Assembly: GCA_046726415.1 (NCBI GenBank)
Contig: JBKPAK010000103.1
Coordinates: 15,597-79,596 of the forward strand
Direction: 5' to 3'
DNA length: 64,000 nucleotides
Source of the DNA: Candidatus Methylomirabilota bacterium
GTDB taxonomy: Bacteria > Methylomirabilota > Methylomirabilia > Rokubacteriales > CSP1-6
The position numbers and the translations under genes were made by a program. Of the stretch, positions 52,793 to 57,115 are shown in pieces (the stretch's first letter is position 1; each line of letters opens with the position of its first letter). The notes under the pieces are model-generated. The model searched no databases and was not told the origin of the DNA. It was given only the letters and a program-made list of their open reading frames with translations.

Positions 52793-53071
52793 TCACCCTG
52801 GGGGGCGGCGGCGTTGCCGTAGTTCCTGGTGGATTTTCAGGTCGTGAAGGCGCATCACGAACGCGACGGCGGCAGCGGCGAGCCCGAGAGCTACCACGAC
52901 CACGAGGGTAAAGTAGTCGGACGCATCCTGTAGGCCACGGGTTCCTAGATACGTCACGATGATGGCCGATATGAGAACCACGCCTAGCAGCAGTCCCCGG
53001 TAGAGCCAGCGCTCGACCAGAAGGCGCCCCAGCGCCTCGTCGTCCAGTTCGCGCCAGTCTCGATCGCGCAT
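52793..53071 (-). CDS. Small two-TM hypothetical membrane protein
   Basis: 92 aa with two hydrophobic segments and a basic C-terminus. Confidence 0.6.
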   Translation of the reverse strand: MRDRDWRELDDEALGRLLVERWLYRGLLLGVVLISAIIVTYLGTRGLQDASDYFTLVVVVALGLAAAAVAFVMRLHDLKIHQELRQRRRPPG

Positions 53072-53086
53072 TGCGTTAGCCGGGAT

Positions 53087-53115
53087 TTGCAGTGGGCACG
53101 CTTGGTGTATACCAT
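53087..53115 (+). promoter_or_regulatory. Sigma70-type promoter for the UxxC-cstA-arsA operon
   Basis: TTGCAG(53087)-17 nt-TACCAT(53110). Confidence 0.55.
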
Positions 53116-53148
53116 CACGCCGACCGATCTTCGCTCGGGGGGTGAGTC

Positions 53149-53541
53149 ATGGCGCCACTGTCCCTCGACCGACCGATCCGTGTGGACGTCATCACCTATG
53201 TCCCCACGCGCTTCAACCACTGAAAGCACTGCGAAGTGACCTGGCAGGTCATGGGCCTTCGCCAGAAAGTGCAGCGGGAACTCCTGGAGACCGGCCTACC
53301 CGAGGATCTCAAGCAGGAGTTCCACGCGCTCTCCGAATGGGCGGGGGCGCTACCCGCTAAGTTCGGCGACCGCGTGCGCGTGCGGCTGATCGACGCGGTG
53401 TCGCTCGAGGGTTTCGTCAAGTCGCTGCTCGGGCGCTTCTGGCGATACCCCGCTTTCTCGGTCCGCGGACACCGCTACGTCGGCTCCGACTTCTCGCGCG
53501 TCGACGACCTCATTTCCACCCAGCTCGCCAAGGGGGGGTGA
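53149..53541 (+). CDS. Predicted thioredoxin-like selenoprotein, UxxC motif (TGA 53221-53223 = Sec25), 130 aa
   Basis: GGGGGTGA SD + ATG 53149; MAPLSLDRPIRVDVITYVPTRFNH-U-KHCEV in frame with ORF 53236-53541; RYPAF cis-Pro-like loop; SECIS-like hairpin after TGA. Confidence 0.8.
53224..53272 (+). promoter_or_regulatory. Putative bacterial SECIS element
   Basis: TGACCT/AGGTCA apical stem with GGC loop 19 nt after TGA; lower stems GCGAAG/CTTCGC and GCACT/AGTGC. Confidence 0.7.
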
Positions 53542-53601
53542 TGCCGACTCTTAACGGGCCAATAGTCCCCGTTCGGTCGAATTGCACGCGAAGGAGGAGG
53601 A

Positions 53602-55398
53602 ATGAACACACTCCTGGCCGTCATCATCGGGGCGCTCACCGTGTACCTCGTGTACACGCGGTACGCCCGGCGAATCGATCGCAACGTGATCCAGTCCGAT
53701 CCCAAGCGGGCCACGCCGGCCACCCTCTACATGGACGGCGTCGACTTCATGCCCACCAACAAGGCCATTCTCTTCGGCTACCACTTCAAGTCGATCGCCG
53801 CCGCCGGCCCCATCGTGGGGGCCATCGTGGCGGCGTCGCTGTGGGGCTGGCTGCCGGCCCTGATCTGGCTCGTGCTCGGCGTGTCCTTCATCGGCTGGGC
53901 CAGCGACTACAGCGGCATCGTGATCTCGGTGCGCAACGACGGCAACAGCCTCTCGGGGGTCGCTCATCGTCTCGTCTCCCCCCGGTCGCGCACCATCCTG
54001 TTCATGTTCATCTTCTTCTACCTGCTGGTGGGGGCCAGCGGCTTCATCAGCATCCTGGCCAGCGTGATGGAGGCGCAGCCCCGCACGCACGTCGGCATCA
54101 TCGTCCTCACGGCCATGGGGCTTCTGCTCGGGCAGATGCTCTATCGCTGGCGCACGGGACTGGTGGGCGCCACCGTGCTCACCGTGGGCCTGACCTTCAT
54201 CGCCATCCTGTCCGGTCCGCTCACGGAGGGTATCTCTCAGGGGTTCAACACCGCCCTCAACAACCTCACGGGGGGAGCACCGCTCGTCACCTACTTCGAC
54301 CCCACCGCGGCGGGCTTCAAGGGTGCCGACGCCCAGATCATGCCCAGCCTGCTCTTCTGGGCTCTGGCCATCAGCGCCTTTTGCTACGCCGGTTCTGTGC
54401 TTCCGATCTGGCGTATGGCCCAGCCCGTTGTCTACGTGGCGTTCTGGGTGAGCGCCACCGCCATCGTGCTCGGACTCGTGGGGGCGGGCCTGGCCACGTT
54501 CGTGAAGCCCGAGGTCGCCCAGTTCGTCATCCCGGCCTTCCGAGGCTGGAATCCACAGCTCGGGCCATCGGGAATGATGCCGCTTTGGCCGATGCTGTTC
54601 GTCACCATCGCCTGCGGCGCTATCTCCGGCTGGCACGCGCTCTTCGGTTCAGTCGGCACTGCCCGCCAAATCGAAAACGAGGCCGACATGCTGCCGGTCG
54701 GCGGAGGCTCGATGCTCTGCGAGTTCCTGCTCGGACTCCTGGCCCTCCTGTCGGTCGCCGTCGGCTCCAAGGGGGCACCAGTAGCCGCCTTCGCCACGGG
54801 GCTGGGTGGCTTCATCAGCGTCTTCGGGGTACCGATCCAGTACGCGACGTCACTGGCCTTCGCGGCCTTCATCGTCATCGTGCTGGTGGTGGCGCAGCTC
54901 CTGTTCCGGGTCATGCGGGTGACCTTGAGCGAGTGGCTGGGTGACGTCATCCCCCCCCTCCGCAGCCAGCATCTGTCGTCGTTCGTCTGCGTCGCTCTGG
55001 CCGTGGTGGTAGTCCTGACCGGCACCTGGATCTACATCTGGCAGCTGCTGGGCGGCGCCAACCAGCTCATGGCGGCGCTGGCCCTTTTGCTGGTCACGGT
55101 CTGGCTCGCCTCAGTGGGGAAGAACTGGCTGTACGCGGGGCTTCCCGCGCTCTTCATGTACGTGACCACGGTCGTCTCCCTCTTCGTCACCGCCTACAAC
55201 CTCTATGCGAACGTCTACCGGATCAACGTGGCGGAGGGACGGCTGGCGCCGGTGGTCGGCTCTGGGCTTCTCATCACCATTGCCATGCTGCTGGTGGTGG
55301 CCGCCCTCTTCATCGGCTACGACGGGCTCCGGGCTTTCATGCGCTACCGCAAGCGGCCGATGGCGGCGGCGCCTACGCCAGCCCCGGCGCGAGCCTAG
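53602..55398 (+). CDS. cstA: Carbon starvation protein A (CstA) family transporter
   Basis: TPA...DGVDFMPT, FGYHFKSIAAAGPIVG, LWPMLFVTIACGAISGWH, IWQLLGGANQL; strong SD. Confidence 0.92.
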   Translation: MNTLLAVIIGALTVYLVYTRYARRIDRNVIQSDPKRATPATLYMDGVDFMPTNKAILFGYHFKSIAAAGPIVGAIVAASLWGWLPALIWLVLGVSFIGWASDYSGIVISVRNDGNSLSGVAHRLVSPRSRTILFMFIFFYLLVGASGFISILASVMEAQPRTHVGIIVLTAMGLLLGQMLYRWRTGLVGATVLTVGLTFIAILSGPLTEGISQGFNTALNNLTGGAPLVTYFDPTAAGFKGADAQIMPSLLFWALAISAFCYAGSVLPIWRMAQPVVYVAFWVSATAIVLGLVGAGLATFVKPEVAQFVIPAFRGWNPQLGPSGMMPLWPMLFVTIACGAISGWHALFGSVGTARQIENEADMLPVGGGSMLCEFLLGLLALLSVAVGSKGAPVAAFATGLGGFISVFGVPIQYATSLAFAAFIVIVLVVAQLLFRVMRVTLSEWLGDVIPPLRSQHLSSFVCVALAVVVVLTGTWIYIWQLLGGANQLMAALALLLVTVWLASVGKNWLYAGLPALFMYVTTVVSLFVTAYNLYANVYRINVAEGRLAPVVGSGLLITIAMLLVVAALFIGYDGLRAFMRYRKRPMAAAPTPAPARA

Positions 55399-55421
55399 CG
55401 GGGAGGGGATCGAATCGTGCC

Positions 55422-55452
55422 GACGCGCGGGGGCTACGGCCCCCCGCGCGTC
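55422..55452 (+). other. Intercistronic 12-bp hairpin with C-TACG-G loop
   Basis: GACGCGCGGGGG / CCCCCGCGCGTC. Confidence 0.8.
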
Positions 55453-55512
55453 CGAGAGGTGTCGGCGCGAGCGCGTGCAGAGTTGCCGCGAGCGCGGACG
55501 GAAAAGGTGACG

Positions 55513-55806
55513 ATGACGGGCCGAATCGCCGCACAGTGGACGGACCTTCGCGAGGCATTCGCCCGCTTCGTCTACGGCCTGACGGGGTACGAGTTCGCCC
55601 GCCACGCCGTGGAGATGCGGCATCAGCTGGAGGCGGTGTTCATGATCGTGACCTTCGGCGATCTGGTGGGCGTGCCCATCCTGCCGCCCGTCTATTCGCT
55701 CCGGCTGCTGCCACACGTGGTGCCCGAGGTGGCGACGTGGAAGCGGCACCTCGCTCGCCGCAAGGAGTTCTGGGAGAAGGAAGAGTACGACCTCCACGGT
55801 CTCTGA
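55513..55806 (+). CDS. Small CstA/ArsA-associated protein 1
   Basis: 97 aa; FMIVTFGDLVGVPILPPVYSLRLLP motif shared with the next gene. Confidence 0.8.
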   Translation: MTGRIAAQWTDLREAFARFVYGLTGYEFARHAVEMRHQLEAVFMIVTFGDLVGVPILPPVYSLRLLPHVVPEVATWKRHLARRKEFWEKEEYDLHGL

Positions 55807-55829
55807 GCCGATGGAGCGAAGGGGACGCG

Positions 55830-56108
55830 ATGGCTGACGACCCGAAAGCGAAGAAGCGCGGAGGTCTGCTGGGCGCCTTCAGGGACATCGTTTACGGCAT
55901 GGCATCGCACGAGATGACCCGCCACGCCGTCCGCTCCCGCGCTAGCATGGAGCACCTGTTCATCCTCATCACCATGGGCGACCTGCTGGGCATTCCCATC
56001 CTGCCGCCCTACTACTCGCTCCGGCTCCTGCCGTACGTGACCCCGCAGATCGCCGGCTGGAAGCGCCGCATGCTGCGCGAGCGCGACGTCACCGACATCC
56101 TCGGATGA
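55830..56108 (+). CDS. Small CstA/ArsA-associated protein 2 (paralog)
   Basis: 92 aa; FILITMGDLLGIPILPPYYSLRLLP. Confidence 0.8.
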   Translation: MADDPKAKKRGGLLGAFRDIVYGMASHEMTRHAVRSRASMEHLFILITMGDLLGIPILPPYYSLRLLPYVTPQIAGWKRRMLRERDVTDILG

Positions 56109-56140: not shown

Positions 56141-57115
56141 ATGTCGCTGCGCGAGGCGTTCGAGAGCCAGCCCGACCGGCGCTACGTGATGTTCGGCGGC
56201 AAAGGCGGGCTCGGCAAGACCACCCTCTCCGCCACCAGCGCTTTCTGGCTGGCCAGCCAGGGCAAGCGCGTGCTGCTCTTCTCCGTCGATCCGCAGGCGA
56301 GCCTATCCGACATCTTTCAGCGCGACATCTTCGGCCAGGGCCCGGTTCCCATCATGGAGAACCTCTGGGCCCAGGAAGTCGACGCCGACCGGCGCATCCG
56401 CGAATACCAGGAGGAAATTCGCAAGAAGATCCTCGACATGTACGGCTTCGAGCGCGTCCCCGAGGAGATCGACAACTATATCAGCGCCGCCTCGGCCGAG
56501 CCCGCCATGGAGGAGAGCGCCATCTTCGACGCCGTGGTCGACATCATCGTGCAGGGGGACTACGACTACTACATCTACGACCTCGTCCCCCTCGGCCACG
56601 CCCTTTACTATCTCTCCATGGCCAAGGTCTACGACGAGTGGATCAACAAGATCACCAAGCTCCGCGAGGAGATGCGCCAGTACGACCAGGTGGCGGCCAC
56701 CATGCGCCGCGAGCAGCAGCTCGAACAGGACCAGATCCTGGGCGAGTTGACCTATATCAAGGAACGGATCAACGCCTCGTCCAGGATCCTGACCGACAAG
56801 GCGCGCACGGCTTTCTTCTTCGTGGTGGTCCCCGAGGAGATGATCATCCTCGACACCCGCAAAGCCGCCGAGCTGTTCGCGCGCTTCGATGTCCCCATCT
56901 CGGGCTACATCGTGAACCGAATACTCCCGCCGGAGCTAGGTCAGGCCGGCATCCCCGTCTACCTCAAGAATCGCCTGGCCATGCAGCACAAGTACCTCGA
57001 TGAGATCCGGGGGGCCTTCGGCACGGAGATCCGGGCCTACGTTCCGGAGATGGAACGCGATGTCACGGGACTCGCCATGATCGAACGCCTCGCCCGGCGA
57101 CTCTTCGAGAGCTAG
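56141..57115 (+). CDS. ArsA/Get3 family ATPase 1
   Basis: GKGGLGKTT, SVDPQASL, DLVPLGH; no Cys; AAGGAG SD. Confidence 0.9.
   Translation: MSLREAFESQPDRRYVMFGGKGGLGKTTLSATSAFWLASQGKRVLLFSVDPQASLSDIFQRDIFGQGPVPIMENLWAQEVDADRRIREYQEEIRKKILDMYGFERVPEEIDNYISAASAEPAMEESAIFDAVVDIIVQGDYDYYIYDLVPLGHALYYLSMAKVYDEWINKITKLREEMRQYDQVAATMRREQQLEQDQILGELTYIKERINASSRILTDKARTAFFFVVVPEEMIILDTRKAAELFARFDVPISGYIVNRILPPELGQAGIPVYLKNRLAMQHKYLDEIRGAFGTEIRAYVPEMERDVTGLAMIERLARRLFES

Follow-up and report, generated by a model that had tools for sequence, protein, structure and literature searches.

Is the short gene ahead of a cstA-family transporter gene correctly called, or does its coding sequence begin further upstream and run through a TGA codon? 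The question is raised by positions 53149-53541 (+ strand) of the window, the whole 64,000-nucleotide stretch of Candidatus Methylomirabilota DNA analysed here. An automatic open reading frame (ORF) list places a 101-aa ORF there, and a sequence-only reading had proposed an unannotated thioredoxin-like selenoprotein. From comparative sequence evidence we hold with high confidence that this is a real, mis-annotated selenoprotein gene in which codon 25 is decoded as selenocysteine (Sec). We also favour, with slightly less assurance, a fuller explanation: the product is probably a thioredoxin-fold selenoprotein whose Sec25 is placed by a hairpin in the message, forms a UxxC redox centre and serves a co-transcribed CstA.

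A reading frame that continues through TGA

The start codon ATG (53149-53151, +) is preceded at a distance of 2 nt by a Shine-Dalgarno-like G-rich stretch (GGGGGGTGAG, 53137-53146, +) and followed by 24 sense codons and then TGA (53221-53223, +) as codon 25. The codons right after it, AAG CAC TGC, encode K-H-C, and the frame is continuous with the 101-aa ORF called from GTG 53236 to the stop TGA at 53539-53541. All of this is read directly from the DNA, exactly as the sequence-only reading had it. With TGA translated as U, the full coding sequence (53149-53541, +) yields 130 aa (...RFNH-U-KHCEVTWQ..., with C-terminus ...LAKGG), and orthologues align over residues 1-126 or beyond. Sec25 would be the first residue of a U-K-H-C redox motif, and Cys28 (TGC, 53230-53232, +) its presumed resolving cysteine. 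Pro101, in R-Y-P-A-F (53449-53451, +), occupies the site of the thioredoxin-fold cis-proline before strand 3 and is presumably cis here too; it is invariant in a 36-sequence set (A1) and at least 90% conserved in a 90-sequence alignment (A5). The N-terminus has, by eye, no obvious signal peptide or membrane segment, which suggests a cytoplasmic protein.

An origin of the TGA in sequencing error or an assembly slip was considered and rejected: the codon is present in 34 of 46 matches across the phylum and also in contigs of the soil-metagenome DNA runs X2 and X3. These contigs cover 53221-53223 with no differing letter reported, so that other assemblies show TGA and not TGC or TGT, although one of the two runs may be the source sample. 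G-run lengths do differ among soil assemblies. X2 and X3 have one G fewer at 53137, before the start codon, and run X4 has one G fewer in the G-run ahead of the stop codon (53532), a frame shift at the last residues that would fit database entry P0002, which ends ...KGGDAGS.

What do the homologues carry at codon 25? Searching the database with the read-through product gave 157 relatives at E ≤ 0.001, 120 of them listed. Among those listed, 118 cover just 67-78% of the query and begin downstream of the TGA; the short relatives that we fetched start M-T-W-Q-V or M-G-L-R-Q, immediately past it. Wherever Sec forms are present they are mis-annotated: databases hold only the C-terminal 96-109 residues, under the name 'hypothetical protein', which is also what the source databases call family members generally. 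The other two listed relatives, P0007 (...YVPTNFQH-C-RHCEITFQ...) and P0022 (...YVPTQFQH-C-QHCEVTWQ...), are full-length homologues with Cys at codon 25 between the same flanks.

When 251 genomes belonging to the window's phylum were searched in all six frames, 46 matches came up, in 38 of them. The 34 with an in-frame TGA (32 with one, 2 with two) have alignments that run from about residue 1-10 to about residue 126. Thirty-five copies were read from 30 loci: 30 have U at H-U-x-H-C, four have Cys and one is cut by a contig end. Around the U/C column the conserved flanks are R-V-[ED]-V-I-T-Y-V-P-T and H-C-E-V-T-W-Q. The TGA is invariant in the 24 closest orthologues, and in all 89 database members of A5 the aligned residue is Cys. 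The expectations that came with the original proposal, homologues in which the first 24 residues are preserved, codon 25 is Cys or TGA and the sequence to either side is conserved, are therefore borne out.

The 24 codons ahead of the TGA behave as coding sequence. In the 24 closest orthologues their amino acids are kept and their synonymous sites vary: V12 is GTC in 16, GTT in 3 and GTG in 1, P19 is CCC in 10, CCG in 10, CCT in 1 and CCA in 1, and T20 is ACC in 16, ACG in 6, ACA in 1 and ACT in 1. Synonymous variation with conserved residues argues that translation runs through the TGA in this frame.

The exchange of Sec and Cys extends beyond the phylum. In a second phylum, that of a Syntrophaceae genome holding a Cys form, 401 genomes were sampled and the family occurs in 29; 12 of 30 matches contain one TGA, and in all ten such copies fetched it stands at the first Cys of the CxxC (DHUPHCE, DGUAHCEF, D[TL]UPSCEF, NTUFTCNI). 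On a quick maximum-likelihood tree of 62 copies (40 Sec and 22 Cys, with the cut copy L037 left out) at least five Sec/Cys changes are needed, at least two of them forced by well-supported branches. A search of genome contigs for related loci returned a further eight, and since its pattern, HCxHCE, requires Cys, these could only be Cys forms.

Several loci hold unusual copies. In a sister clade of the same class, a tandem Cys paralogue (HC[QS][HP]C) is followed by a Sec paralogue (HU[PS]HC) at L039, L043 and L044 (genomes G006, G023 and G012); cstA precedes the pair in the first two, and the L044 contig starts at the pair. L028 and L032 (G199 and G171) hold two tandem Sec paralogues upstream of cstA, the first UKHC and the second URRC with a changed V-L-T-D-Y strand end. 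Cys28 is replaced by Arg in one of the 24 close orthologues, L035 (G139, 1495-1863, -), which reads H-U-R-H-R-E and so keeps Sec and has Arg for the resolving Cys; this copy is unlinked to cstA, which in G139 sits on a different contig. L041 (G019, 153-524, -) contains a further in-frame TGA at a position occupied by Trp in L040, the neighbouring species (DGAE-U-ILGW versus DGAE-W-ILGW). This TGA may have arisen from TGG, may be an error or may mark a decaying copy; the adjoining cstA also has a stop (one TAA).

The genome (7.6 Mb in 352 contigs, 98% complete) has the machinery that Sec decoding would call for. The sequence-only reading had found no sel genes in the window, which lies on contig C103, and had left the machinery unverified. 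They lie elsewhere: selA (591.9 bits), selB (374.2 bits) and tRNA-Sec (selC; 71 bits) are together on C313, where ARAGORN calls tRNA-SeC with anticodon tca, and selD (335.6 bits) is at C223:11994-12938 (locus L011). All four exceed curated cut-offs. The selD gene has one in-frame TGA of its own, so selenophosphate synthetase appears itself to be a selenoprotein in this organism. SelA is above its cut-off in all five other genomes with Sec forms tested, from four clades, and in four of five genomes with Cys forms only, the one without it being 89% complete. Homologue exchange, conserved flanks, sel genes and the hairpin described below all support the proposal that Sec25 is decoded, and UGA at codon 25 would be read by this genome's SelA, SelB, tRNA-Sec and SelD; selenium insertion itself we infer.

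A hairpin past the UGA and a thioredoxin-like fold

By the criteria of bSECISearch, a bacterial selenocysteine insertion sequence (SECIS) has its apical loop about 16-37 nt downstream of the UGA, with a G early in the loop. The window has a SECIS-like apical hairpin at 53236-53252 (+), with a 7-bp stem (GUGACCU/AGGUCAU) and a GGC loop (53243-53245) that begins 19 nt past the UGA; it overlaps the GTG that was called as the ORF start. The three-tier hairpin with a G-first loop that had been described from the sequence is recovered as the minimum free energy fold (53226-53272, +), with the loop at the same distance. Its upper part stood the comparison with relatives, where the apical tier is conserved, but its lower two tiers did not: they are broken in many orthologues (alignment A2) and are specific to this sequence.

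In a simple scan, the window hairpin and all 30 Sec forms of the first phylum fit criteria of the bSECISearch type. Each has a stem of at least 6 bp, a loop of 3-5 nt with G first or second and a loop start 19-22 nt past the UGA, at energies from -6.9 to -12.9 kcal/mol. The 12 Cys forms have weaker, scattered hairpins (mean -3.7 versus -8.3 kcal/mol in Sec forms; Mann-Whitney p = 3e-6, a value that overstates the contrast because the sequences are related). In the 24 close orthologues, cells of the apical stem are paired 85.9% of the time, compared with 24-52% when the 3' partners are slid. The sister clade has a different stem, CGUUCCU-GGA-GGGAGCG, with its loop 20 nt past the UGA, so that two clades of one phylum have unlike stem sequences at nearly equal distance from the codon. 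Hairpins of the second phylum are weaker and less regular, the best simple ones ranging from -0.5 to -7.9 kcal/mol in ten Sec forms. Eight of the ten have a GACC/GGU[CU]-type stem with a loop start 24-25 nt past the UGA (loops AGGU[GA] in six copies, AGGUGG in one and CAG in one), and L056 and L057 have weak hairpins only, at 29 and 36 nt.

Synonymous sites are constrained where the hairpin lies. Among the 24 orthologues, seven conserved degenerate codons of codons 26-35 have a mean synonymous entropy of 0.36 bit, versus 1.02 for 56 others (Mann-Whitney p = 0.0009, again overstated by kinship among the sequences compared). The gene-wide minimum of a 6-codon sliding window is 0.37 bit, at codons 27-34, and the four-fold codons V30, T31 and V34 have 0.44, 0 and 0.27 bit against a mean of 1.24. 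The case for a SECIS-like element rests on its position, its recurrence with different sequences, the contrast with Cys forms and this synonymous constraint, and not on covariation. Within the coding sequence, such a hairpin would direct Sec insertion at codon 25.

What kind of protein would result? A thioredoxin fold had been proposed from the pattern of strands and motif, and two AlphaFold models together with fold searches agree with it. AlphaFold2 with 36 sequences gave a mean predicted local distance difference test (pLDDT) of 73, with the active-site stretch poorly resolved; with 90 sequences it reached pLDDT 85 and a predicted template modelling (pTM) score of 0.72. The latter model has a strand at 10-16, a short helix at 20-23, a helix at 26-35 that begins right after Sec25 and helices at 38-49 and 52-75, followed by a strand at 76-82, a helix at 86-94, strands at 102-105 and 108-111 after Pro101 and a helix at 115-129. 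Strand 102-105 follows Pro101 in both models. In these models the core order, strand-helix-strand-helix-strand-strand-helix, is that of thioredoxin with an insert of about 40 helical residues. Nearly every structure match listed was a chain with the thioredoxin fold: thioredoxins, PDI, ERp, DsbA-type domains, KaiB/SasA and designed thioredoxins. Foldseek matches had E 0.016-0.1, probability up to 1.0 and template modelling (TM) scores of 0.45-0.6, and VIA-align gave Z from 9.0 down to 7.2 over the best 50 entries, with 82-92 residues aligned in most rows. A profile search of PDB sequences returned nothing below E 0.8.

The family is sizeable. The 36-sequence profile recovered 381 cluster representatives at E ≤ 0.001, and 218 at ≤ 1e-10, among 1.84 billion proteins. 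Of 149 new representatives listed, 87 are proteins of 110-175 residues whose CxxC, in most cases H-C-x-H-C-E, lies 12 or more residues in from the N-terminus, and many of the others begin just past the CxxC point, as truncated Sec forms would. The nearest clusters in ESM Atlas are auto-named 'glutaredoxin family protein', with no common Pfam family. When 26 diverse members were scanned, three passed a Pfam cut-off, P0122 and P0235 that of DUF1525 (24.7 and 31.4 bits, cut-off 24.1) and P0241 that of Thioredoxin_3 (24.9 versus 24.8), and none passed an NCBIfam cut-off. Weak matches of the scanned members were all to thioredoxin-like models (MJ0307 family, MTH895/ArsE, SaoT, HUIPC), in the C-terminal half.

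In A5, C25, C28 and P51 are invariant, and D82, S85, G88 and P101 are at least 90% conserved. A CxxC at the N-terminus of a helix and a Pro before strand 3 form the pattern of thiol-disulfide oxidoreductases. On fold and motif we read the protein as a divergent thioredoxin-superfamily oxidoreductase, probably with Sec25 attacking and Cys28 resolving. Sec25, at the N-terminus of helix 1, would make a U-x-x-C redox centre with Cys28, and its selenolate would attack and reduce, or exchange with, a disulfide or other electrophilic sulfur or selenium centre in a partner, leaving a selenenylsulfide with Cys28.

The cstA neighbourhood and competing explanations

Sixty nucleotides downstream of the selenoprotein gene lies its probable operon partner, a cstA-family transporter gene (53602-55398, +) that encodes 598 aa and is the single cstA of the genome. 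Its score against Pfam CstA is 331.9 bits, but the equivalog model for E. coli CstA, with a cut-off of 1188, gives it only 146.5 bits. In the phylum, cstA adjoins the family gene at 26 of 29 loci, the three misses being two contig ends and one unlinked copy, and it does so at five of eight Cys-form loci of other phyla (titled Actinomycetota, Anaerolineaceae, Limnocylindrales and others) and at seven of 20 loci of the second phylum. Gene order varies with the clade: the window's clade and the Cys forms from other phyla have the gene upstream of cstA, whereas the sister clade and the Sec clade of the second phylum have it downstream. Among the 251 genomes of the phylum, 37 of the 38 with the gene have cstA; the gene occurs in 37 of 62 cstA genomes and in 1 of 189 without cstA, that one a fragment. 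The genomes are kin, so we quote no statistical test for this co-occurrence.

The evidence for a tie to CstA consists of gene order and co-occurrence, and from these the two genes are probably co-transcribed and the small protein most likely serves the transporter, controlling its redox state or handling its cargo. If it acts on the transporter, a candidate target is Cys338 of CstA, in T-I-A-C-G-A-I-S-G-W-H, which is invariant in the 28 CstA sequences that accompany the family.

Other genes surround the pair. A divergent ORF for a hydrophobic 92-aa protein (52793-53071, -) lies upstream of the selenoprotein gene, where close relatives conserve it, and reaches no family cut-off; tblastn finds it at 20 of 29 loci (L016-L044), all within L017-L036, at 48-65% identity. 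Directly past cstA are two small paralogous ORFs (55417-55806 and 55821-56108, +) with a weak likeness to 'cory-CC-star protein' NF041419 (24.4 and 34 bits; cut-off 80) but without its C-terminal Cys-Cys. An ArsA/GET3/TRC40-type ATPase gene comes next (56141-57115, +, 225 bits), and the order cstA, two small ORFs, ATPase is repeated in locus L045.

A number of observations weigh against the reading of the locus as a hairpin-directed thioredoxin-fold selenoprotein tied to CstA. On the RNA side, the fold energy of the 86-nt region is ordinary for its G+C-rich composition (z = 0.21; 111 of 200 shuffles fold as well). Covariation gave nothing: no pair is changed on both sides in either candidate stem, shuffles match the observed score, and the stem changes are all one-sided (G-U/G-C and U-A/U-G). 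Because the stem codes for a peptide that is itself conserved, E-V-T-W-Q-V, some of the constraint on it comes from the protein. There is also a second candidate for the element, a shifted hairpin (CCUGGC-AGGUC-GCCGGG, loop 22 nt past the UGA), which is equal or better in those orthologues in which codon 35 is GCC rather than ATG and is the sole option in two copies. On the protein side, the best Pfam match is at chance level (FdhE_central, E 0.23), with no thioredoxin or glutaredoxin hidden Markov model (HMM) reached, and the fold matches are weak, as no Foldseek E is ≤ 0.001 and Z scores of about 8-9 are near the usual best for models that have no clear match. In metatranscriptome run X19, the one such run that held part of this stretch, contigs lie only at 53606-53752 and 54086-54200, in cstA, and none over the selenoprotein gene, which is uninformative either way. 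As for the link to the transporter, 25 of the 62 cstA genomes of the phylum are without the gene, and the G139 copy is unlinked. The association is not universal elsewhere either: a second-phylum subgroup sits beside aldo/keto-reductase-like genes and a conserved 163-aa ORF, and one second-phylum Sec form follows a Na/sulfate-type symporter gene.

These last observations suit the view that the protein is a real selenoprotein oxidoreductase with a role in general redox homeostasis, for which adjacency to cstA is operon hitch-hiking and carries no functional tie. At 13 of 20 second-phylum loci cstA is not nearby, and we regard this view as a serious possibility, though one we doubt. Against it, record titles place the adjacency in four phyla or more (Actinomycetota, Chloroflexota, that of the window and that of the Syntrophaceae genome), it persists in both gene orders, 37 of the 38 genomes of the phylum that have the gene also have cstA, and the unrelated DUF466/KCU-star family, as far as its literature was available to us, shows the same attachment to cstA genes.

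Could the centre bind a metal or metalloid instead? A real selenoprotein with H-U-x-H-C-E as the binding site of a chaperone or sensor, and no oxidoreductase activity, is conceivable: around the Sec/Cys pair, the residues His24, His27 and Glu29 vary little or not at all among the 36 sequences of A1, and the ArsA/GET3-type ATPase gene lies three genes downstream. Over 90 diverse members, however, invariance is confined to P51 and the two Cys positions, and many members have another residue (Q, L, N, G, F, S, T, A, P or R) in place of His. Together with the oxidoreductase pattern of CxxC and conserved Pro, this makes a metal-binding role unlikely.

A reading of UGA as some residue other than Sec (Trp, Cys or Gly), through near-cognate decoding or an altered code, is very improbable. 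The sequence alone does not tell the inserted residue, and the second in-frame TGA of L041 does sit where its neighbour has Trp. The code is not reassigned, though, because the same gene and neighbouring ORFs end in TGA; the aligned residue of homologues is always Cys, the standard counterpart of Sec; and the genome holds a full Sec machinery, the TGA-bearing selD included, while a SECIS-like hairpin accompanies all 30 Sec forms.

Least probable of all is that TGA is a true stop, with the 24 upstream codons a leader peptide or non-coding and the protein starting at GTG 53236 or ATG 53251, or that the locus is a pseudogene: gene callers do begin the protein past the TGA in 118 of the 120 listed relatives, and the ordinary fold energy and the X19 contigs, confined to cstA, are compatible with a stop, but the short product would miss strand 1 and both redox residues, invariant in the fold, the upstream codons are conserved as protein with synonymous variation, and the Cys forms are uninterrupted ORFs. 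Moreover, all 24 close orthologues share the TGA and other clades have one at this column too, which no pseudogene would show. Decoding of codon 25 as Sec, in a redox-active protein that serves CstA, remains the explanation we prefer.

Parallels with known selenoproteins and CstA partners

The canonical motifs of thioredoxin and glutaredoxin are WCGPC and CPYC, and the window protein differs from both in its H-U-x-H-C-E. It otherwise resembles the Sec-containing thioredoxins and glutaredoxins (PF00085 and PF00462; PMC13188914, in the parts of Table 1 available to us) in its small thioredoxin fold, the UxxC/CxxC at the N-terminus of helix 1, the Pro before strand 3, the interchange of Sec and Cys within the family and a SECIS-like hairpin just 3' of the UGA. 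At E up to 10 neither HMM matches it, and the best scores of other members, 13.7 and 12.7 bits, lie below the cut-offs of 23.5 and 22.9. Unlike thioredoxins and glutaredoxins, the family has the helical insert of about 40 residues (helices 38-49 and 52-75, with the invariant Pro51) between helix 1 and strand 2, and it is linked to a transporter gene.

Two thioredoxin-like UxxC selenoprotein families have recently been named, NF047660 and NF040730, and H-U-x-x-C resembles the motif HUIPC. The window protein has no match to either at E up to 10, nor to anything else in NCBIfam at that threshold. Among the 26 members scanned, the best scores were 13 bits for NF047660 (one distant member; cut-off 105) and 15.5-16.3 bits for NF040730 (cut-off 65). 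The sole curated models touched by some members are TIGR00411 (MJ0307-family thioredoxin), PF13192 (Thioredoxin_3) and PF07511 (DUF1525), none of which the window protein matches. These matches always fall in the C-terminal half, from strand 2 to the last helix, and suggest a distant common origin within the thioredoxin superfamily. An Rfam scan of 52900-53700 found no SECIS family; its two hits, naRNA4 (14.6 bits) and DUF3800-XI (13.5 bits), are at the level of chance.

Is the family then new? In the parts of Table 1 available to us, every family in the 2026 review carries an InterPro-type model identifier (PMC13188914), so the window protein, which matches no Pfam or NCBIfam model, appears not to belong to any family in those parts. 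The same review, as far as it was available, reports a Methylomirabilota metagenome-assembled genome (MAG) with 63 predicted selenoprotein genes and 'potentially novel candidate selenoproteins' from a groundwater-MAG survey. The family lacks a curated model, and that survey (Deng et al.) or Haft and Tolstoy 2025 may already list it. With its recognition, a phylum of soil and groundwater gains a selenoprotein family, and given its 381 cluster representatives, a model built from A5 would correct many annotations.

Small proteins encoded next to CstA-type transporters have, as far as we know and with no search aimed at the point, no established function. The closest parallel to the locus as a whole is the DUF466/KCU-star family (PF04328 'Sel_put', NF033934), listed under the latter name in the available parts of the review (PMC13188914). 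According to the portions of a preprint available to us, the E. coli DUF466 proteins YbdD and YjiX end in Cys-Cys and are each encoded beside CstA or a paralogue, and a related selenoprotein in Campylobacter ends in Cys-Sec (10.1101/2022.07.06.499078). That preprint was the one relevant report on a link between CstA and selenoproteins that our literature search returned, and no report tying together CstA, glutaredoxin and selenocysteine came up in it; for selenoproteins of Rokubacteria it brought up nothing relevant. Both families comprise small Cys/Sec proteins encoded beside cstA, and both have Sec and Cys forms. They differ in the placement of the redox pair, which is at the very C-terminus in DUF466/KCU-star (CC or CU) and N-terminal (UxxC) in the window family, and in fold: the window family is thioredoxin-like, with no homology to DUF466/KCU-star. 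Neither PF04328 nor NF033934 matches the window protein or anything else in this genome, which has no DUF466/KCU-star gene.

CstA transporters may as a rule be paired with a dedicated small thiol or selenol protein, two unrelated families having been recruited and each having switched Cys to Sec. We put this forward tentatively, as a rather unlikely generalisation. If it held, the transporter might be gated by redox at its conserved Cys (Cys338), or its cargo might be a sulfur or selenium compound that is captured or reduced on arrival. The repeated attachment to cstA, alongside that of the unrelated DUF466/KCU-star, is in any event a testable lead on what small proteins do beside CstA-type transporters. 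As a selenoprotein family the one described here is new but of a well-known kind, and its interest lies in the fact that a small Cys/Sec protein has been recruited to CstA transporters for a second time, independently.

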